Source: Escherichia phage vB_EcoM_WFbE185 | Sequence record: MK373778.1 | Length of the DNA stretch: 64,000 nucleotides | Reading direction: 5' to 3' (one strand) | The notes under the pieces: model-generated | Database searches by the model: none | Seen by the model: the letters and a program-made list of their open reading frames with translations, nothing else | What the model was told of the DNA's origin: nothing | In this document: piece by piece, positions 5,677 to 63,043 of the stretch | How positions within the stretch are numbered: the stretch's first letter is position 1 | How the letters are laid out: each line of letters starts with the position of its first letter | Translations under genes and position numbers: made by a program

Positions 5677-7095
5677 TTATGGATATGTATAGATGATACC
5701 AGTTTCCAAAGCAGTTTTATGGATGACGTATCCATTACGTGATTCTTGAACATCAACTTCTGGATAGTCTTTCATCATCTTCTGAAGAGTGTAACGATGC
5801 AGGTAGTATTTACTATCTGCATCTTCAGTTTTCCAATCTTTACCTTCTTCAGTCATTTTTTGTATTTCATCCATAACCCACCAACCGCACCAGATGTAAG
5901 CTGAAGTACGATGTGGAAGAGGATGAACATAAGGTAATTCACCTTCTGGTTCTGGAGCAACTTTATCGGTTACCTGAACTTGTCCTTCTGCTGTAATAGT
6001 TTTGCTATCATAATCAGTAGCAGTAACGACGGCAGTCACTTCAATAGTTTGACTTCCAATAGATGAGGTATCAACGGTATATACATTAGTTGACCCTTCT
6101 ACAGGAGAAGAATCTTTCTTCCATGAATAAGCAATTTGTGCTTCTTCTGGTGCACCAGTAACATTAGCTGTAAATGTAGCCGAAGCATCTTGTTGAACAT
6201 TAATAGAAGGAGGAGTCAATGTAACCTGTGGATTCATTGTCTTCTTATTAACCGTTAATGATACTTCATTCGAAGTAACTTCCTTTGCATCATAATCTGT
6301 CGCAGTTACTTGGGCTACACATTTAATTCTTTTTACTCCACTTGTAGTTGGAGTATAGCTAAATGTAGAGTTAGTTTCTCCACCAATCTGTGAATCATCT
6401 ACATACCACTGATACGTAGCAGACGCTCCAACCGGTTGAGAAGCTAAGGCGGCAGTAAATTGAACTGGGGTTCCAATTACTCCGGCTGAAGGACTATTGG
6501 GAGTTACTGCCAACGTAGTTGTCTGCGTCTTTTTATTAACAGTCAGTGACACTTCATTAGAAGTAACGCTTAGTGCGTCATAATCTGTTGCGGTTACTTG
6601 AGCCACACACTTAATTCTTTTTACCCCGCTTTCGGCAGGAGTGTAATTGAATGTAGCGTTAGTTGCTTCGCCAACAGGAGAATCATCTACATACCATTGA
6701 TAAGTAGCGTTTGCGCCTGATGGCTGCGAAGCTAAAGCGGCAGTAAATTCAATAGCTGTTCCGATTACTCCAGCGTCAGGGCTATTAGGAGTTACAGCTA
6801 AGGTAGTCGTTTGTGTCTTATTTTGAACTGTGATAGTTGTAGAAGCTTCTGCTGTTTCAGCTTCAGCTTCTGGAACTGTATTTGTTGCAACTACTTTAAT
6901 AGACTTTTGACCTGCAGGTCCTTTTAACACATAATCAAAAGTTGCTTCAGCTCCATCTTGCGAAACATCATCTACAGTCCAAGCATATGTAATAGTTCCA
7001 CCTCCAGTTTCACCACTGGGAGTAGCAGTAAACTGCTGAGTCTGATCTATAACTCCAGTAGGTGTTTTAGGAGTTATATCAACTGTAAAAGCCAT
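5677..7095 (-). CDS. hoc: highly immunogenic outer capsid protein Hoc with four Ig-like domains
   Basis: 472 aa; N-terminus MAFTVDITPKTPTGVID and C-terminal capsid-binding region match T4 Hoc; an extra near-identical 96-aa Ig-like domain is present. Confidence 0.85.
   Translation of the reverse strand: MAFTVDITPKTPTGVIDQTQQFTATPSGETGGGTITYAWTVDDVSQDGAEATFDYVLKGPAGQKSIKVVATNTVPEAEAETAEASTTITVQNKTQTTTLAVTPNSPDAGVIGTAIEFTAALASQPSGANATYQWYVDDSPVGEATNATFNYTPAESGVKRIKCVAQVTATDYDALSVTSNEVSLTVNKKTQTTTLAVTPNSPSAGVIGTPVQFTAALASQPVGASATYQWYVDDSQIGGETNSTFSYTPTTSGVKRIKCVAQVTATDYDAKEVTSNEVSLTVNKKTMNPQVTLTPPSINVQQDASATFTANVTGAPEEAQIAYSWKKDSSPVEGSTNVYTVDTSSIGSQTIEVTAVVTATDYDSKTITAEGQVQVTDKVAPEPEGELPYVHPLPHRTSAYIWCGWWVMDEIQKMTEEGKDWKTEDADSKYYLHRYTLQKMMKDYPEVDVQESRNGYVIHKTALETGIIYTYP
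6241..6816 (-). repeat. hoc: in-frame tandem duplication (2 x 288 bp) encoding two near-identical Ig-like domains of Hoc
   Basis: Protein units aa 94-189 and 190-285 both run TQTTTLAVTPNSP...VKRIKCVAQVTATDYDA...SNEVSLTVNKK with about 85% identity. Confidence 0.8.
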
Positions 7096-18223: not shown

Positions 18224-18252
18224 AACGTTTTCCTCATGTTGTTGATGGGATG

Positions 18253-18282
18253 ATAGTATCACACATCCATGTGTTTGTAAAC
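18253..18282 (-). promoter_or_regulatory. early promoter (GTTTAC-N18-TACTAT) with -10 inside inverted repeat GGATG/CATCC
   Basis: -35 overlaps the alt stop; -10 flanked by 5-bp inverted repeat; drives ORF 17930-18223. Confidence 0.5.
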
Positions 18283-20369
18283 TATCCTTGGATAAATTTA
18301 AACGGAACTGATTCTAAATCCATTAAAGATGCTAACAATTTCAAACCTTTAGGTGCACTAGTTTTTTCTACAAATGAGGCAAAAGATACCGGCTCATCTG
18401 ATTCGATTTCACCCGTCATAGCAACTACCTCGCCTGTTTCCATGAGAACATCACCATCGTAAATGACAGCTTCGTCCAACTGGTCCGAGGACATGACTTC
18501 AGCTTGAATAAATTTAAGGTTGGATTCTAAACCTGCACCAGTGTCAGATGACGCATCTGTAATTTTATTTATCTGCAAGAGAATGCCTCTAGGCAAAATA
18601 ATTTCTTGCTCATTAGGGTGATTACTCAACTGACCCGGATAAATCACGTTAACTTTATGGGCGCCATCAATAGCCCATCCAACGTTAACACGGATTTGTT
18701 CTGGTGCATGCATAGCTGTTCTTACTTGACTAGGAGAAATAGTAACACCTTCGTCGTTATTGTCAATGTTAAGCTCTTTGCGAACTTCTTCAGGAGCAAG
18801 TCCAAGGGCAACGTTCTCTTTAAACCCACCGAAAATAATAGGAGCTAGTGAAGTGGAAACATAGTTTCTGAAATAGAATACCTTATTTTTAACCATTGCT
18901 TCGTAAATAGGCATTCTGATAGACTGAGCTCTATATAACGTTAGTCCTTCAGGTAAACGGTCTCCATTTAAAAACGCCGAATCAAGACCATCAATAGCGC
19001 GTTTAACTTCATCTTCATCCGCAACATCGTAAAAATCTGGTTTATAACGACCTAACAACATATTATTGATATCTGTATATGCAGAAGAGGCATATTCACG
19101 AATAGCTCGTTTTTCAGAAACAGAGTATTGTTTAGGGTCCCGATTCATTGTTATATTAAAGGTGCCTCTAGCCGATTCTCGGGCATAAGTATACATCACA
19201 TTAGACAAGAACGCTGATTTACGTTGTTTCCAAGTTCTTTCAGATACTTCAGCTAAAACGTCGTCAGGCAGTTGGAAATTATCACGTCTAAAATCTTCAA
19301 ACCATTCGTCTTTAATAGAGTCTGCAATTTCATTTGCAGCTTCAACAAAAGCAGCTAATGCTTTAACAGATGTTGTTTTTTCGGTTTTAATTTTCTTAGC
19401 AAACTTTTCTAAAGTCGGCTTAATAACACCACCATAAGAAACTTCATCAGCAAATTTAAAGGATTCATCAATACGATTATAAATCTTATTTTCGATATCA
19501 GCAACTAAAGTGCCTTTTGCTGTGGACGACGCTTGGGCTAGTACTATTTCATATGCTTCAGGAAGTAATTCGGCTGTAGCTGGGCCACTAACTTCTTTAG
19601 CAGAATTTTCATATTTCTGGAATAACTCACCTTCTTGTCGGTCCGCTTCTAAAGATTGACTTGCTGCAATAGCACGACGAGAAATTTTAGTACGAGCAAT
19701 AACAGGCTTATCTTTACGTTTTTCTTCTACAGCAGCAATAGAACCAGCGATAGCCGTTTCTTTGGTGACCTTTTCGCCGGTCTTTTTACTAACATAAACT
19801 TCGCCAACATCAGAATCTACTTTCGTGTACAACTCTGTGTTAATGTTAGGGATGCCTTTAATATCTTCAATGTTGGCATTTTTACGAACCATCATCACAT
19901 AGGTGTGTTTACCTGTGAATTGATACATTGCCGACAATACTTTAAAACGACCACCGGTTTTAGTAGAAACTAAACGAGCAAGAAGAGTTTGAAGCTGTTG
20001 TCCACGTCCTTTCAATTTCTTGGTAGGGAATCGGAACAGAACTGCATCCATACGAAGAGCTTTAACTTGTTCATATACTGTATTGAAAATGGTGTTGATT
20101 GCATCAATAGGAGCAGGACCAAGGCCATTTTTCAATTCAGCGAGATTACCCTTTTCAGACAGACTCATAATAACAACATGAGCGTATTTATCGCCGAGTT
20201 TAACTTGTTTTACAGCATCGCCTTCGGAAAGGTAAGAGAATAAACGAACTACAATATTTGTATCGATATCACCAATTTTCCAGACTTGTGGAACTTTAGC
20301 TTTAGGGTTCAAATTGACGACAGGAAGACTGCCTTCAGATTCAAACACTTCATTTAATTGTTCAGACAT
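18282..20369 (-). CDS. alt: Alt ADP-ribosyltransferase (packaged into virions in T4)
   Basis: 695 aa; C-terminal block GWAIDGAHKVNVIYPG...ILPRG...LQINKITDAS matches T4 Alt; T4 synteny. Confidence 0.85.
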   Translation of the reverse strand: MSEQLNEVFESEGSLPVVNLNPKAKVPQVWKIGDIDTNIVVRLFSYLSEGDAVKQVKLGDKYAHVVIMSLSEKGNLAELKNGLGPAPIDAINTIFNTVYEQVKALRMDAVLFRFPTKKLKGRGQQLQTLLARLVSTKTGGRFKVLSAMYQFTGKHTYVMMVRKNANIEDIKGIPNINTELYTKVDSDVGEVYVSKKTGEKVTKETAIAGSIAAVEEKRKDKPVIARTKISRRAIAASQSLEADRQEGELFQKYENSAKEVSGPATAELLPEAYEIVLAQASSTAKGTLVADIENKIYNRIDESFKFADEVSYGGVIKPTLEKFAKKIKTEKTTSVKALAAFVEAANEIADSIKDEWFEDFRRDNFQLPDDVLAEVSERTWKQRKSAFLSNVMYTYARESARGTFNITMNRDPKQYSVSEKRAIREYASSAYTDINNMLLGRYKPDFYDVADEDEVKRAIDGLDSAFLNGDRLPEGLTLYRAQSIRMPIYEAMVKNKVFYFRNYVSTSLAPIIFGGFKENVALGLAPEEVRKELNIDNNDEGVTISPSQVRTAMHAPEQIRVNVGWAIDGAHKVNVIYPGQLSNHPNEQEIILPRGILLQINKITDASSDTGAGLESNLKFIQAEVMSSDQLDEAVIYDGDVLMETGEVVAMTGEIESDEPVSFASFVEKTSAPKGLKLLASLMDLESVPFKFIQG

Positions 20370-25129: not shown

Positions 25130-25170
25130 TTTATTCTCCAGATGTTTAAGTTGTTTGTTGGTACAGGTCT

Positions 25171-25199
25171 ATAATAACATAACCTGTACCAAAGTAAAC
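25171..25199 (-). promoter_or_regulatory. early promoter (GTTTAC-N17-TATTAT) with -10 inside 8-bp inverted repeat GGTACAGG/CCTGTACC
   Basis: Drives ORF 24764-25129; inverted repeat arms at 25160-25167 and 25183-25190. Confidence 0.5.
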
Positions 25200-25203
25200 T
25201 GTT

Positions 25204-25572
25204 TTATGCAACTTTAATCCAATTGTCTAAATTTAAAACACCTTTGGCTTTCATTTTTTCGATCAGGTTATCTGCTGTAATGCGTCCATTTTGATACCAT
25301 GTAACATCTTCAGAGTAACCAGTTTCTTCGTCAACATATGTTTCTGAACGAATTTTACCGGTAATAATAGTTTTTAATTCGTATGTGTCACCTGTGAAAA
25401 AGTTTGCTAACACAATTTTCCAAGAGAAATCATCAGAAGGACCTTCAGGGGTCATACAACCTACGAACTCAAATTGCTCTTTGTATAACATCCACTGGAA
25501 TTCTTTAATTTCGATAGCTTTATAACCGTCGTGGTCTTTACATTTGATGTATGAGTTCAGATTGATTTTCAT
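25204..25572 (-). CDS. hypothetical protein (30.x cluster)
   Basis: 122-aa ORF with early promoter at 25615-25643. Confidence 0.5.
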   Translation of the reverse strand: MKINLNSYIKCKDHDGYKAIEIKEFQWMLYKEQFEFVGCMTPEGPSDDFSWKIVLANFFTGDTYELKTIITGKIRSETYVDEETGYSEDVTWYQNGRITADNLIEKMKAKGVLNLDNWIKVA

Positions 25573-25614
25573 TTTGTTCTCCGGTTTGTTTTATTGATTA
25601 GGTGGTACAAGTCT

Positions 25615-25643
25615 ATAGTAACACATCCTACAGGAGAGTAAAC
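25615..25643 (-). promoter_or_regulatory. early promoter (GTTTAC-N17-TACTAT) for ORF 25204-25572
   Basis: Located just downstream of terminator hairpin 25680-25697. Confidence 0.5.
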
Positions 25644-25679
25644 ATCTTTTTAAACTTTTTCTGCCCTAAACGCACAAAA

Positions 25680-25697
25680 GGGAGACCGAAGTCTCCC
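25680..25697 (-). terminator. terminator after the 59-aa ORF
   Basis: GGGAGAC-UUCG-GUCUCCC followed by UUUUGUGCGUUU on the minus strand. Confidence 0.55.
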
Positions 25698-25702
25698 TAA
25701 AA

Positions 25703-25882
25703 TTATGCAACAACCTTTCCAAAACGAGAAGCATCATCTCGAAGAACTGCACGTGCTCTGCGCATGATCTTCTCAACTGTTTGATTAATACGAGAGTTCG
25801 ACCCACGCTTGTATCCAGCGCGTTTAGAGGTACCATCAACTTTCTTTTCAACTGCTTTCTTTGCTTTAGCTTGTTTTGCCAT
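25703..25882 (-). CDS. small Lys/Arg-rich protein, 59 aa, not in ORF track
   Basis: ATG with AAGAGA RBS; MAKQAKAKKAVEKKVDG...; own terminator hairpin downstream; competing track ORFs start at TTG and cross the hairpin. Confidence 0.4.
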   Translation of the reverse strand: MAKQAKAKKAVEKKVDGTSKRAGYKRGSNSRINQTVEKIMRRARAVLRDDASRFGKVVA

Positions 25883-26094
25883 TATAAATTCTCTTTAAAT
25901 GAAAATGCAGGACTTATTGACATTGCCTGCGCAAGCCCTCAAGGGGAACATAGGTTTTGGATATTTAACGACAGGATAACCATAAACCCGTCATCATACC
26001 AACCACGACTTAGACAGATAACCTTTTTCTGACGCGTGATAGTACAAAATACATTCAAGAGGTACACCGTAAAACTGCCGTGGTCTTAAAACTA

Positions 26095-26114
26095 TAATGA
26101 TTCGCAAATCATTA
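26095..26114 (-). terminator. AU-rich hairpin downstream of rIII (possible weak terminator)
   Basis: UAAUGAUU-UGCG-AAUCAUUA followed by UAGUUUUAAG; 8-bp stem but AU-rich. Confidence 0.3.
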
Positions 26115-26177
26115 ATCAGACAGTTCGACGGCTCCTCGATTTTCTAGCCGCACTTAAGGTAGCGAATCACCTAAAAC

Positions 26178-26426
26178 TTATTTAAGGGTAATAACAAAAT
26201 GACGTACTGCTTTACGAGCTGCAGAAGCCAAAGGCTTAGCATATTTCAGTTCATCTTTTGCTTCCAGTTCAGAGGCCAAAGCCGCCTGTACCGGGTTCAG
26301 ACGTTTGAAATAATGCAGGATTTCCAGTGCTTCGGCTTCAACATCAATCGACGCGCCGTAGTTTTCGTGACCGTTATTCCATGCGTTTCGTTGCAGTTCA
26401 AGAGCGTGTTGTAATTGTTTAATCAT
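26178..26426 (-). CDS. rIII: rIII lysis-inhibition accessory protein
   Basis: 82 aa; MIKQLQHALELQRNAWNNGHENYG... matches T4 RIII. Confidence 0.85.
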   Translation of the reverse strand: MIKQLQHALELQRNAWNNGHENYGASIDVEAEALEILHYFKRLNPVQAALASELEAKDELKYAKPLASAARKAVRHFVITLK

Positions 26427-26542
26427 TTTAAATTCTCAATTCGAGATAATATTTAGTAGCCACGTTCGTCTGAATTTCACCTTCTTTCGACAAGTCTCTC
26501 AGTTGTAGGCTACCGCTTAGAAGAGTGTTCTCTTCATATAGT

Positions 26543-26550
26543 TATTTATA
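26543..26550 (-). promoter_or_regulatory. late promoter motif (TATAAATA, minus strand) upstream of rIII
   Basis: Exact minus-strand TATAAATA immediately after the gene 31 stop, 117 nt upstream of rIII. Confidence 0.4.
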
Positions 26551-26883
26551 TCACTTATAAAGACACGGAATAGCTTTATAGTGGCATGTTACGAATTTCT
26601 GTTTAATTTCTTTAGGTTGTTTAAGTCCCAAAGCCACAAATGGATGTGGAACATTTCGAATTTGTCCAACTGGTAGTGGAGTCAAATCACCGACTTCAAC
26701 AAAACCTTCAGGAACATCAGGACCTACAGAATGAACTACACATAGTTCAGGAACTTCACCTTGAACACGTTTACCAATCACAAGTCCTGATTCGGTAACT
26801 TCTTCATCACCTGCTTGAGCGGGTTCAGAAACCAGAATGACATATTCACCAACAGCACGAATTGGGAGTTGTACTTCAGACAT
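26551..26883 (-). CDS. 31: gp31 co-chaperonin (GroES analogue for capsid folding)
   Basis: 110 aa; [28 protein letters not shown]... matches T4 gp31; MotA middle promoter upstream. Confidence 0.92.
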
Positions 26884-29169: not shown

Positions 29170-29197
29170 TTCTATTTCCTCATTTGTTGGTAGAGTT

Positions 29198-29227
29198 ATA
29201 GTATCACAACTCTACCATGTTGTAAAC
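29198..29227 (-). promoter_or_regulatory. early promoter (GTTTAC-N18-TACTAT) with -10 inside 9-bp inverted repeat; heads the transcription unit containing DAHP synthase and cd
   Basis: Inverted repeat GGTAGAGTT / AACTCTACC (29189-29197 and 29208-29216) brackets the -10. Confidence 0.5.
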
Positions 29228-29229
29228 CA

Positions 29230-29505
29230 TTAAATTGCTTTGCATTCAATTTTTTGTGTACCGAAATTGATATCACATTGGATAACTAAATCGCCGTCAA
29301 GATCAAATACCACGATGACGTGTGCAGACCCAGGGAGAAGAGTAATAGCAATAGAATCTACTTGGTCTGGGAGCAAAGCATTGAGTACATGAGTTACTTG
29401 AGCATGAACTCTGAGTTCGGCTGCATTATTAAGCACTTCAAACATATTATTAGCAATAATCTGACTGAAGACTACCTTTACAATTTCAGAATAAGTTGGG
29501 AACAT
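29230..29505 (-). CDS. hypothetical protein (cd-pseT interval)
   Basis: 91-aa ORF, compact minus-strand array. Confidence 0.45.
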   Translation of the reverse strand: MFPTYSEIVKVVFSQIIANNMFEVLNNAAELRVHAQVTHVLNALLPDQVDSIAITLLPGSAHVIVVFDLDGDLVIQCDINFGTQKIECKAI

Positions 29506-33462: not shown

Positions 33463-33491
33463 AATTTTCTCCTCGTGTTGTTGATAAACCC

Positions 33492-33521
33492 ATAGTATCA
33501 CCATCCTTGGTGTTTGTAAAC
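33492..33521 (-). promoter_or_regulatory. early promoter (GTTTAC-N18-TACTAT) for alc
   Basis: -10 lies 30 nt upstream of the alc ATG; spacer contains CACC...GGTG inverted repeat. Confidence 0.5.
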
Positions 33522-33523
33522 CG

Positions 33524-34657
<1,134 letters not shown>

Positions 34658-41330: not shown

Positions 41331-41364
41331 TTTATTCTCCTCTTCACTTTTATTTTATAGGGCT

Positions 41365-41394
41365 ACTATAACATAGCCCTATCTTGTTATAAAC
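41365..41394 (-). promoter_or_regulatory. early promoter (GTTTAT-N18-TATAGT) with -10 inside inverted repeat GGGCTA/TAGCCC
   Basis: Drives ORF 41082-41330. Confidence 0.45.
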
Positions 41395-41786
41395 TACTTT
41401 TTAAAAGTTTTTTGCAAAAGTTTGATGATTTCGTCGACGTTAGTTTCATCCACGATACAATGGATTTTTGTTACACCTAAAGTTATACCTTCGTTAGTAG
41501 GTTGAGGCTTTACTAAATCTACCTCAGTAAAGTATTTGAACTCGTCAGGATAAATCTCAAAATAAGTTTCAATTTCACCACCGGCAGAACATACAGTACC
41601 ATCTTCCATAGTTACACTTACTACGTTTGACGTATCGCTATCATAATCAGGTTCCATTCCGTTTACAACAAAACTAGGCCCGTGGAGTTCAATCAATTTT
41701 AACATCTTAGCGTTATTATGTGGTGCTTCTTGAACAAAGTCGTCTTTAAATAAAGGGTTAATGATATAAGATTTTCCGATTTCCAT
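41394..41786 (-). CDS. hypothetical protein (frd.3-like)
   Basis: 130-aa ORF with early promoter at 41816-41844. Confidence 0.5.
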   Translation of the reverse strand: MEIGKSYIINPLFKDDFVQEAPHNNAKMLKLIELHGPSFVVNGMEPDYDSDTSNVVSVTMEDGTVCSAGGEIETYFEIYPDEFKYFTEVDLVKPQPTNEGITLGVTKIHCIVDETNVDEIIKLLQKTFKK

Positions 41787-41815
41787 TTTGATTTCCTCAT
41801 GTTGTTGATAGGTCT

Positions 41816-41844
41816 ATACTAACACATCCAGGGAAGAAGTAAAC
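41816..41844 (-). promoter_or_regulatory. early promoter (GTTTAC-N17-TAGTAT) for ORF 41394-41786
   Basis: Immediately downstream of the gene 32 terminator. Confidence 0.45.
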
Positions 41845-41875
41845 AACTTTTTCGGCAATTTACAGATACTCAAAA

Positions 41876-41893
41876 GGGAGACCGAAGTCTCCC
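41876..41893 (-). terminator. terminator after gene 32
   Basis: GGGAGAC-UUCG-GUCUCCC followed by UUUUGAGUAU. Confidence 0.6.
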
Positions 41894-50868: not shown

Positions 50869-50873
50869 ATTTA

Positions 50874-50891
50874 GGGAGACTTCGGTCTCCC
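50874..50891 (+). terminator. terminator after gene 35
   Basis: GGGAGAC-UUCG-GUCUCCC followed by AUUUUUG; the gene 36 late promoter follows. Confidence 0.6.
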
Positions 50892-50898
50892 ATTTTTG

Positions 50899-58740: not shown

Positions 58741-58806
58741 TTTATTTCTCCAAATTAGTATTTGTTTTGATAGGTCTATAATATCATGTTTGAAGCAAAA
58801 GTAAAC
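58732..58806 (-). repeat. promoter/RBS/start cassette, copy 1 (motA)
   Basis: 36-nt stretch 58761-58796 identical to 59083-59118; 19-nt RBS-plus-start stretch 58732-58750 identical to 59052-59070. Confidence 0.7.
58778..58806 (-). promoter_or_regulatory. early promoter (GTTTAC-N17-TATTAT) for motA
   Basis: Part of a duplicated promoter/RBS cassette (second copy 59100-59128). Confidence 0.5.
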
Positions 58807-58844
58807 TTTATTTTGGGCTCTTTTTCCAAAAGCCCTGGTAAAAT

Positions 58845-59060: not shown

Positions 59061-59128
59061 TTTATTTCTCCAATTTGGTTGTTTTGTTTTGATAGGTCTA
59101 TAATATCATGTTTGAAGCACGTGTAAAC
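59052..59128 (-). repeat. promoter/RBS/start cassette, copy 2 (motA.1-like)
   Basis: See copy 1; both ORFs begin ATG TCT AAA. Confidence 0.7.
59100..59128 (-). promoter_or_regulatory. early promoter (GTTTAC-N17-TATTAT) for motA.1-like ORF
   Basis: 36-nt identity with the motA promoter copy. Confidence 0.5.
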
Positions 59129-59154
59129 TGTTTTGTGAGGAAAAAATGCACAAA

Positions 59155-61362: not shown

Positions 61363-61406
61363 GCTAATTTCCTCAATTGATTAATGTTTTTGTAATCCAT
61401 GAGAGC

Positions 61407-61436
61407 ATTATACTCTGCTCTCAAGAGTTTGTACAA
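61407..61436 (-). promoter_or_regulatory. early promoter (TTGTAC-N18-TATAAT) for ndd, -10 inside inverted repeat GAGAGCA/TGCTCTC
   Basis: Near-duplicate of the 32087-32116 cassette. Confidence 0.45.
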
Positions 61437-61438
61437 TT

Positions 61439-61639
61439 TTATTCGGCCATATCAGAACGTTCAAAAAGCTCTTCAACAGTTAAACATTCAGTGTCATCTT
61501 CAATAAAGAATCGAGTCCAACACGTTGGGGCGATACAGTTATGAGTTTGTCCGGCGATAGAAGCTACACGAATAAGCTGCTGACCGTTATTCAGAACAAA
61601 TTTTTCACCAATTTCAACATCTTTAAAAAGCTTAGCCAT
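61439..61639 (-). CDS. hypothetical protein (ndd.x-like)
   Basis: 66-aa ORF with GAGGAA RBS and early promoter at 61668-61697. Confidence 0.45.
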   Translation of the reverse strand: MAKLFKDVEIGEKFVLNNGQQLIRVASIAGQTHNCIAPTCWTRFFIEDDTECLTVEELFERSDMAE

Positions 61640-61667
61640 TTTGTGTTCCTCATGTTTCAGTAGGACT

Positions 61668-61697
61668 ACTATACCATAATCCTACCTTGTTGTAAAC
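61668..61697 (-). promoter_or_regulatory. early promoter (GTTTAC-N18-TATAGT) with -10 inside inverted repeat TAGGA/TCCTA
   Basis: Drives ORF 61439-61639; similar to the 62180-62209 cassette. Confidence 0.45.
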
Positions 61698-61889
61698 AAT
61701 TAAATTACATTAAAATATGTTAAAGCCAACCATGTTCCAGTGAACGAACATGCGATGTAAAACCACGCATCACAAATTGTTCTTAGTACAATAAGAAGTG
61801 CATTTTTCATAAGTACCTCAACACAATTGAAAATATTATACAAATCATTGGGATACTAAGCAACCATATTCCTATCCACATTTTAGAGC

Positions 61890-62153: not shown

Positions 62154-62179
62154 GATGTTATCCTCTTTTAGATAGGACT

Positions 62180-62209
62180 ACTATATCATAGTCCTACTTA
62201 GTTGTAAAC
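62180..62209 (-). promoter_or_regulatory. early promoter (GTTTAC-N18-TATAGT) with -10 inside inverted repeat TAGGACT/AGTCCTA
   Basis: Drives ORF 61890-62153; lies just downstream of the denB stop. Confidence 0.45.
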
Positions 62210-62221
62210 ACTTTTGTGAAA

Positions 62222-62779
62222 TTAAAGATGAAGATACCACCCGTTGTAGTTGCTCTTGCGGACGATTTTCTTTAGGTCTTCATGGTCTCCCACGAACTTT
62301 ATAGAATAAGAGAAGACGTCAGGTGAGGTTTCTTTGACATCTAATATAATAATGCAATCTGCGACTCGATGGTTCAAGAAGGGCCCTATATTGATTCCAT
62401 TACCACCCGGATAATCACCACTGTATCCTGTGGTAACCGAAATCCATTTCGAATCCATCTGATGGGTCTTTACTTCTACGCGTAGACCACAGTACTTAGG
62501 ATGAGCTAAAACGTCCCATGCATACGTGTACGGGTCTTCTACGTCTTCATTACCTTTATTAACATATCCGTCTAGCCAATTTGCTACTACATACTCTGCA
62601 AAGACTGCAACCTTACAACGTCGAACAACGTCTTCTTTTATTTGACCTGGATCTTGTTTCAACGAGTACCGAGCAGTATCAGCGATCTTAACCTTCATTT
62701 CGCTAGTCAAAAACTCATTCGTCAGGATAAATGTCGGAAGACTCTTCAGCCTCAACAGCCCCAAGTTCGTCTTTACCAT
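62222..62779 (-). CDS. denB: endonuclease IV (DenB)-like protein
   Basis: Start ATG MVKTNLG with GAGGT RBS gives 185 aa, the T4 DenB length; position between ndd and rIIB; no sequence confirmation possible here. Confidence 0.65.
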   Translation of the reverse strand: MVKTNLGLLRLKSLPTFILTNEFLTSEMKVKIADTARYSLKQDPGQIKEDVVRRCKVAVFAEYVVANWLDGYVNKGNEDVEDPYTYAWDVLAHPKYCGLRVEVKTHQMDSKWISVTTGYSGDYPGGNGINIGPFLNHRVADCIIILDVKETSPDVFSYSIKFVGDHEDLKKIVRKSNYNGWYLHL

Positions 62780-63002: not shown

Positions 63003-63022
63003 AATTACCCCTAAAGAAAAAA

Positions 63023-63038
63023 GGGGACCGAAGTCCCC
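63023..63038 (-). terminator. terminator after rIIB
   Basis: GGGGAC-UUCG-GUCCCC followed by U6 on the minus strand. Confidence 0.6.
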
Positions 63039-63043
63039 AATTA

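Follow-up and report, generated by a model that had tools for sequence, protein, structure and literature searches.

The 64,000-nt stretch of DNA from Escherichia phage vB_EcoM_WFbE185 analyzed here (MK373778.1; hereafter termed the window) contains a 295-nt gap between the genes rIII and 30.9 (25883-26177, minus strand), in which a single 36-nt unit that is close to certain to be a homologue of ToxI lies directly behind the rIII stop codon. ToxI is the RNA antitoxin that keeps the ToxN endoribonuclease inactive in the form of processed 36-nt pseudoknots, the two together making up the type III toxin-antitoxin abortive infection system ToxIN. We favor a reading of the rIII-30.9 spacer in which an orphan ToxI repeat would serve as an anti-ToxN decoy and is followed by a structured leader of 30.9, and we hold this combined reading to be fairly probable. 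The genes around the gap all have minus-strand orientation, and the gap must accordingly be read on that strand, as the spacer of the rIII-30.9 transcript; its position and strand suggest a transcribed non-coding spacer of this minus-strand unit, built from discrete RNA structural cassettes. An initial annotation of the window had described the interval as free of open reading frames (ORFs) and rich in inverted repeats, and this observation is confirmed here. Its interpretation, which ranged from a terminator with a small non-coding RNA to a replication or packaging site or a promoter, is partly supported: the small structured RNA was borne out and can now be specified as a ToxI-type pseudoknot in the first 36 nt after rIII, and the structured rest of the gap proved to be a chain of covarying hairpins and a pseudoknot on the minus (gene) strand.

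A single ToxI-like unit behind rIII

The unit and its parts are as follows.

26137-26172, minus strand: single ToxI-like unit (pseudo-ToxI), AGGUGAUUCGCUACCUUAAGUGCGGCUAGAAAAUCG, directly after the rIII stop
26149-26172, minus strand: pseudoknot core of the unit, 24 nt, followed by the 3′ tail GCUAGAA
about 26139-26143, minus strand: AAAAU, a cleavage motif of the ToxN type

When the whole gap was compared by BLAST with 72,556 plasmids (7.3 Gb), gap nucleotides 2-47 alone found a match (E = 4e-5), and each of the 73 plasmid records concerned (Escherichia, Salmonella, Klebsiella, Pectobacterium and others) carries the sequence in tandem copies. At all five plasmid loci inspected, one of them on the original ToxIN plasmid, pECA1039, the gene that directly follows the matching array bears the annotation of a type III ToxN/AbiQ family toxin. 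The plasmid repeats fall into two types, the first being AGGTGATTTGCTACCTTTAAGTGCAGCTAGAAATTC (pECA1039, E. coli pTA141-2) and the second AGGTGATTCGCTACCTT(T)AAGTGCGGGACGAAAATCC (E. coli pU90-1, Lelliottia, Hafnia). The first is identical to the published ToxI repeat (PMC8610362), with which a primer given in PMC5772629 agrees. The window unit matches either type at 32 of 36 positions and draws on both: its 24-nt core agrees with the second type in every nucleotide, and its 3′ tail, GCUAGAA, does not differ from that of the first (pECA1039, Pectobacterium).

Built from the plasmid ToxI repeats alone, a covariance model picked out one minus-strand interval, 26138-26175, at 59 bits (E about 2e-10); its runner-up in the 64 kb reached 13.7 bits. 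Across the plasmid and phage versions, 97% of the cells in stems S1 and S2 of the crystal structure are paired, three pairs of the pseudoknot are compensatory, and none of 500 shuffles reached the observed pairing. The core differs from Pectobacterium ToxI by U9C and A25G, which make up one compensatory pair, and by the natural 2T/3T variant. The residues described as key to ToxI, namely G5, A6, U12, A19/A20, G21 and U22 (PMC8860590), are all present in the window unit, as are the 3′ tail and the AAAAU junction, and C27 and U28, each of which is essential for ToxI antitoxicity (PMC3475682), are intact.

The window unit has much in common with the ToxI arrays carried by ToxIN plasmids (pECA1039 from P. 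atrosepticum and those of E. coli, Lelliottia, Hafnia and Salmonella), which it resembles in sequence, key nucleotides, 3′ tail and AAAAU junction as well as in an H-type pseudoknot with S1 AGGU/ACCU and S2 CGC/GCG (PMC8860590). The differences lie in organization: plasmid ToxI consists of 3 to 10 tandem repeats with their own promoter and terminator, immediately upstream of toxN, whereas the phage has one unit with another 5′ tail, a tail and core taken from two plasmid types, and no toxN. No tandem array of at least two repeats was found in the window, no toxN gene lies near the unit, and neither a promoter nor a terminator of its own was called in the gap. Since the unit is flanked by rIII and 30.9 without toxN, we regard it as an orphan copy and not as a toxin-antitoxin locus.

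Distribution of the unit and its proposed role

At least 80% of the gap is present in about 515 phage records, and for comparison we assembled the rIII-30.9 spacers of 48 different T4-like phages, which represent about ten genera. Among T4-like phages of E. coli, Klebsiella and relatives, many have at one fixed site what appears by sequence to be a near-perfect ToxI unit, and it behaves as a cassette. RB69, which like the window phage belongs to Mosigvirus, reads TAAG followed by TAAATCGAGG where the window reads TAAG, TTTT, the unit and AATCGAGG, so that precisely the unit is gone; it is also missing from OLB35, LF82-8 and several Dhakavirus phages. Variants whose stem-2 pairs and tails differ occur in other genera, and two of them are detected by the plasmid-only model (locus L064 with 37 bits, Klebsiella phage LilPanda with 30 bits). 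In T4, T2, T6 and STML-198 a more diverged unit occupies the same position, its stems being kept through compensatory changes. IME08 has a different sequence of ~70 nt, AAGUGGAUGUUGGCAGGUACCUCCACUAUAAUAUGAUACCUGCUUGUAUGUUGUCUUUAAUAUCAUCC, in place of the ToxI unit (L007:329-400), and this could be another cassette.

In all, 109 phage records match the ToxI unit. Single ToxI-like units of ~35 nt, 89-97% identical to that of the window, occur in phages unrelated to T4 with genomes of about 75-150 kb, among them phiTE, Salmonella phage 7-11, Vibrio JSF10/JSF12 and several Klebsiella, Escherichia and Salmonella phages; Klebsiella phage pzk-kv23 and Escherichia phages LNA4 and XT32 are further examples. 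Such single units in unrelated phages suggest that toxI has been captured repeatedly and independently. The matching feature of phiTE (89.7%) is annotated as “pseudo-ToxI”. To our knowledge, mimicry of a type III antitoxin RNA has been documented experimentally for this one phage only, which is unrelated to the T-even group. Phage-borne pseudo-ToxI is a kind of element already known, from one unrelated phage, and we found no earlier report of a ToxI-like unit at rIII-30.9 or in other phage families in the searchable literature, outside of which lie subscription journals. The “escape locus” of phiTE (Blower et al., 2012; PMC3475682) is like the window unit in being a ToxI-like 36-nt sequence in an intergenic region of a lytic phage without toxN, and both have one extra A at the 3′ end. 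They differ in that phiTE, which is rV5-like, has 1.5 copies in the wild type, and its C27G/U28A changes abolish the antitoxicity of a single repeat (PMC3475682), whereas the window unit, known from sequence alone, is a single copy in the rIII-30.9 unit of a T4-like Mosigvirus with C27/U28 intact and an E. coli-type core.

By analogy with ToxI, which holds ToxN inactive, an anti-ToxN decoy function of the unit is plausible, and we suggest that the unit probably blunts the ToxIN suicide defence of the host. As the phage shuts off host transcription, the labile host ToxI would decay and ToxN would be freed, while rIII-30.9 transcripts would supply a ToxI look-alike. With the pseudoknot and the GCUAGAA tail as its contacts, ToxN could bind this look-alike, and would probably also trim it at the flanking AAAU sites or the AAAAU junction, leaving a species that ends in ...GCUAGAAA>p. 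Part of the ToxN might in this way be titrated or re-inhibited, and the single unit may also be a seed for copy-number expansion or recombination with toxI, as in phiTE. That C27 and U28 are kept, unlike in phiTE, speaks in favor of this proposal.

A number of observations weigh against the proposed role. The 5′ single-stranded tail is UUUU where the native one is AUUC/AUCC. The AAAU closest on the upstream side overlaps the rIII stop at a distance of about 10 nt, compared with 4 natively, so that the ring may fail to close as it does in ToxIN. There is a single copy of the unit, with one significant model match in the 64 kb on both strands and no membership in any repeat family, and in phiTE 1.5 copies gave no protection, the wild type being sensitive and expansion being needed (PMC3475682, PMC3594212). 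Plasmid toxIN strongly restricts T2, T4 and T6, and RB69 least (bioRxiv 10.1101/2022.04.14.488369); as T2, T4 and T6 are restricted despite a diverged unit, at least the T4-type unit is not sufficient. The plasmid-only model does not detect this T4-type unit, which has no meaningful BLAST match in plasmids or E. coli genomes either, and its homology to ToxI is therefore argued from position and structure only. Among the gap modules, the ToxI unit is the only one with bacterial homologues, the non-ToxI part of the gap having no BLAST match in E. coli genomes. Furthermore, the known T-even counter-measure to ToxN is a protein, TifA (PMC10853763). The unit was also considered as the cause of the relative toxIN resistance of RB69, an idea that we rejected because RB69 has no unit.

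The restriction of T2, T4 and T6 by toxIN despite their own version of the unit (bioRxiv 10.1101/2022.04.14.488369) is also what a second explanation would expect, namely that the whole spacer is an ordinary regulatory leader that does no more than control the processing, stability and translation of 30.9, and the ToxI-like unit a neutral scar of recombination with a toxIN plasmid, with no anti-defence role. This explanation, which we consider unlikely but deserving of serious weight, is consistent with the dispensability of the unit, absent from RB69 and others, with the use by T4 of inhibitory RNA folds located at translation start sites (PMC3014915), and with the fact that a second pseudoknot (PK), the hairpin H3 and the hairpin at the 30.9 ribosome-binding site, all described below, are always linked to 30.9 and occur in T4-like phages only. 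A scar would be expected to decay, yet none of the residues critical to ToxI structure or function has been lost from the unit, the differences in its core being limited to a compensatory pair and the natural 2T/3T variant. The diverged phage versions likewise keep both pseudoknot stems by means of compensatory changes, and comparable single units appear to have become fixed, independently of one another, in unrelated phage families.

Under the decoy reading, the window element would stand beside TifA (T4 gene 61.4; PMC10853763). The two share a presumed target, ToxN, and the phage group; TifA is an 85-aa RNA-binding protein that is encoded elsewhere and experimentally demonstrated, in contrast to an RNA mimic deduced from its sequence. 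The fixed unit in T4-like phages, the units in unrelated families and the precise gain and loss of the cassette together suggest that antitoxin-RNA mimicry may be a widespread standing counter-defence or a pre-adapted seed of one. The idea is testable in the best-studied phage-host system, for which ToxIN and TifA are already in hand.

A probable structured 30.9 leader and its exchangeable modules

The remaining ~250 nt of the gap are most likely a structured 30.9 leader, which on this model would set the processing, stability and translation of 30.9. Its modules, on the whole predicted by folding, are listed from the 30.9 start codon toward rIII.

25883-25906, minus strand: hairpin AUUUUC-AUUUAAA-GAGAAU in the minimum free energy structure of RNAfold, predicted to sequester the 30.9 ribosome-binding site
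25897-25930, minus strand: hairpin H3, GCAGG-14 nt-CCUGC, then the U-rich AUUUUCAUUU
25930-25949, minus strand: small hairpin H2, GU(U/A)CCC-loop-GGGCUUG, with conserved flanks
25949-25993, minus strand: H-type pseudoknot (PK), P1 UGACGGG/CCUGUCG
26002-26040, minus strand: hairpin D, outer helix AUCACG/CGUGGU, apical helix CAGA-AAAAGGUUA-UCUG (RNAfold centroid)
26059-26137, minus strand: long irregular hairpin, arms GAGGAGCCGUCGAACUGUC and GGCAGUUUUACGGUGUACCUC (RNAfold centroid and RNAalifold consensus)
26095-26114, minus strand: apical hairpin of the long hairpin, UAAUGAUU-UGCG-AAUCAUUA

The three inverted repeats of the initial annotation correspond to H3, H2 and the apical hairpin, in this order. 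The first, GCAGG/CCTGC, is present as described (GCAGG at 25907-25911, CCTGC at 25926-25930), and so is the third, TAATGATT-cgca-AATCATTA in plus-strand letters, at 26095-26114. For the second, given as CCCT-CA-AGGG, the location holds (CCCT at 25936-25939, AGGG at 25942-25945) and the form does not, a 2-nt loop being sterically impossible; a CCC/GGG stem around a 5-nt loop is realistic, and the counterpart in relatives is CCCU-UYG-AGGG.

Comparison with T4 and its relatives, which the initial annotation had proposed as a check, revealed a gap that is conserved and covarying. To judge from these alignments, the remainder of the gap without the ToxI unit is also under purifying selection and covarying, and the spacers form a mosaic in which discrete modules are gained, lost and reordered between phages. 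The 87-nt segment 25907-25993, from the pseudoknot to H3, surpasses both neighboring genes in conservation, being 96.6% identical in T4 (rIII 85%, 30.9 91%), 95.5% in IME08 (rIII 89%, 30.9 71%) and 91% in VR26 (rIII 84%, 30.9 65%). Both the G-U pairs and the compensatory changes belong specifically to the gene (minus) strand, which argues for an RNA and against a DNA site. It is this conservation and covariation, not the fold energy, that sets the gap above chance: the sense (minus) strand folds at -73.4 kcal/mol versus -71.7 +/- 5.6 for shuffles (z = -0.31), from which it follows that hairpin richness by itself is not above chance, and the antisense strand gives z = -1.99. Thermodynamic stability, not being significant, was accordingly dropped as evidence of structure.

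Of the unique spacers examined, nearly all have PK upstream of 30.9. Its loop UUUAUGGUUAU pairs with AACC(U)AUG, located 3′ of a conserved A-rich linker, GUUAAAUAUCCAAAA, and P1 folds in 17 of 17 lineages tested, their sequences differing. Covariation of loop and tail is exemplified by CAAGGUU/AACCUUG, UUAGUAG/CUACUAA and GUGAG/CUCAC, and the mean longest helix is 6.6 bp for cognate loop-tail combinations versus 4.8 for non-cognate ones, a value reached by none of 5000 permutations, although relatedness of the sequences inflates this statistic. P2 is short in the window lineage (4-5 bp). PK is restricted to T4-like phages, once per genome, and an exact-pattern scan for its linker in 185,579 species genomes gave eight matches, in unrelated bacteria and with no pseudoknot context, where ~4 are expected by chance.

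H2 is unique in the window and is kept across genera with varying loop and stem (CCCUUCGAGGG, CCUCUUAGAGG, CCCUAUGGGG), folding in most relatives. In other genera the helix of H3 is replaced and the hairpin kept, as GAACUGG/CCAGUUC, GGGAGC/GCUCCC, GAGAGG/CCUCUC or GAAAGG/CCUUUC. In most lineages the 30.9 ribosome-binding site lies in a small hairpin, for which other genera have a predicted equivalent, UUCUCC/GGAAGA. An alternative helix predicted for the window, GGGCUUG/AAGUCC, is not kept in other genera, and H2 and H3 were preferred to it.

The 3′ half of the gap can be likened to known mRNA structures of T4, such as the pseudoknot in the gene 32 leader and the hairpins in which the ribosome-binding sites of e, soc, 49 and I-TevI are hidden (PMC3014915, PMC535899), in that a conserved pseudoknot and a ribosome-binding-site hairpin precede a small gene in a read-through transcript. 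It differs from these cis-acting structures in having no sequence relationship to them and no known regulator. In some genera PK lies more than 250 nt from the 30.9 start codon, which makes direct, operator-like control of initiation doubtful. According to a 2010 review, no riboswitch or trans-acting regulatory RNA had been characterized in T4 (PMC3014915).

In the long hairpin, five pairs still pair after changes on both sides (RNAalifold), and PP01 and STML-198 have the apical part deleted and the basal helix retained. A long-range helix proposed by RNAalifold, GAAUGU/GCAUUU, was discarded because STML-198 does not retain it. At the base of the long hairpin, GGAG (26135-26138, minus strand) lies inside a conserved AAAAUCGAGGAGCC. 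GGAG is the motif cut by the T4 RegB endoribonuclease (PMC9409239), and this RegB-type motif is a candidate site for such cleavage.

Hairpin D is a variable cassette. In LF82-8 it reads AUCAUG/CAUGGU with CAGC/GCUG, a compensatory change; T4 is without it, and in many sister phages its place is taken by a structured RNA of 136 nt. This RNA, of 133-145 nt (CGGCAAGUGCAUGCUACC...GCUAACGGUGUGCAACAGAUAAGAG), occupies the same spacer in Gaprivervirus, Jiaodavirus, Karamvirus, Moonvirus, Kanagawavirus and some Dhakavirus, and is absent from the window; we located it in VR26 (L006:~500-640), in L040, L041, L044 and L045 and in 13 other loci, and OLB35 has a deleted remnant of it. RNAalifold gives it 38 pairs, 16 of them still pairing after two-sided changes, and one covarying hairpin with a GNRA tetraloop; CGAUGG/CCAUCG, noticed by eye, is a possible pseudoknot. 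It has no Rfam match and was found in no E. coli genomes or plasmids. The PG7-type spacer likewise has no BLAST match in E. coli genomes or plasmids.

The exchange of such modules invites a further explanation, in which the spacer is an exchangeable RNA anti-defence island whose cassettes are decoys for different RNA-dependent defences (other ToxIN clusters, TenpIN, AbiF-like systems). Cassettes are indeed shuffled, gained and lost between close relatives, which fits arms-race loci, and PK directly abuts pseudo-ToxI in many phages. PK also has the topology of a type III antitoxin (stem 1, short 2a-1b loop, A-rich loop, stem 2) and, at ~45-55 nt, falls within the 39-57 nt reported for TenpI (PMC3401426, PMC12283969), a likeness by description only. 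Among the modules, however, the ToxI unit alone has a bacterial match, and PK, which is inherited vertically, always accompanies 30.9 and is not found in unrelated phages, a pattern that a cis-regulatory role fits better. We consider the island explanation improbable, and we are just as skeptical of its extended form, which would take in the 136-nt RNA of the sister phages with its 16 compensatory pairs and make the basic 59-aa gp30.9 the RNA-binding partner of the cassettes. As mobile repeats the modules were ruled out, since each occurs once in the 64 kb and is not repeated elsewhere.

The initial annotation had further proposed a covariance-model scan, and Rfam 15 gave no match at E <= 10, neither in the gap region nor in eight related loci. 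Rfam also misses the authentic toxI arrays of pECA1039 and pU90-1; because no Rfam model detects even authentic toxI, the null result is uninformative on ToxI. The 30.9-leader pseudoknot and the 136-nt RNA are two conserved structured RNAs for which no Rfam family is defined.

Coding potential, transcription signals and gene context

The source phage is T4-like, of the genus Mosigvirus, and the window shares 99.7% identity with vB_Eco_mar005P1 and 99.4-99.6% with JK42 and G53. T4 has the same gene order with a gap of 244 nt. The features flanking the gap are these.

26551-26883, minus strand: gp31
26543-26550, minus strand: late-promoter box TATAAATA, upstream of rIII
26178-26426, minus strand: rIII (82 aa), upstream gene of the transcription unit
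25703-25882, minus strand: gene 30.9 (59 aa, basic), start codon at 25880-25882
about 25680-25701, minus strand: strong terminator GGGAGAC-UUCG-GUCUCCC, 3′ of 30.9

The matches of gp30.9 are limited to PHROG families of no assigned function, and no Pfam family was found for it; several records label 30.9 as “1,4-alpha-glucan branching enzyme” or “11.1 kDa protein”.

The more conventional readings offered for such an interval are that it holds the rIII terminator and/or a 30.9 promoter, a small protein gene, or a DNA site for replication or packaging. They can draw on the U-rich run after H3, on small ORFs annotated in G53 (37 aa) and SV76 (two), and on an “ori type 2 repeat” in one record, and we regard them as very improbable. 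With respect to coding, ORFs in the gap are of at most 42 aa and have TTG/GTG starts or no plausible ribosome-binding site, and none of them is credible. No conserved ORF was found in 25883-26177, and coding potential was rejected because 1-nt and large indels in relatives shift and disrupt every reading frame of the gap. As to a DNA site, there is no sign of a replication or packaging element, the “ori type 2 repeat” of the ATK47 record being a 10-bp pattern match only, and the G-U and compensatory pairs are specific to the gene strand. ARAGORN finds no tRNA in the gap, in agreement with the initial annotation.

The terminator and the promoter suggested for the gap did not materialize either. 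Under the scan rules (a GC-rich stem of at least 5 bp, a short loop, then a U run), no intrinsic terminator was called in 25400-26700; the scan passes over H3, whose loop is 14 nt, and the GCAGG/CCTGC hairpin with its AUUUUCAUUU tail is a weak terminator candidate at best. The gap contains no sigma-70-like site, the sole one of the scanned region lying upstream of rIII, no member of the repeated early-promoter family of the phage, and on either strand no late TATAAATA box or MotA TGCTT box. With no early, late, MotA or sigma-70 element, there is therefore no recognizable 30.9 promoter in the gap. In T4, rIII is reported to be served by early, middle and late promoters (PMC9409239).

Public annotations of the interval disagree. 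G53 has the 37-aa ORF and SV76 the two small ORFs mentioned above, the T6 record lengthens 30.9 to 72 aa so that it runs through the H2/H3 hairpins, and the ATK47 record places its 10-bp “ori type 2 repeat” here. The ToxI-like unit is annotated in none of G53, SV76, T6, ATK47 and the RAST-annotated genomes.

Elsewhere in the window we noted a family of dispersed repeats of ~50 nt, with GTTTAC and TATAAT-like hexamers on the minus strand and a small inverted repeat between them, none of which lies in the gap. Presumably they correspond to T4-type early promoter cassettes (promoter-early stem-loop elements), which they resemble.

2608-2661, 18232-18285, 25154-25208, 29177-29244, 33471-33524 and 41358-41411, minus strand: ~50-nt repeat family
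41799-41853, 58761-58815, 59083-59137, 61395-61440, 61656-61714 and 62159-62226, minus strand: ~50-nt repeat family, continued

The UUCG-tetraloop terminator occurs in near-identical copies at 25675-25697 (the one behind 30.9), 41871-41893 and 63017-63039, and also at 2296-2325 and 50869-50898. Finally, a tandem direct repeat of 288 nt at 6239-6814, its two copies being 76% identical, is probably a duplicated gene or domain.

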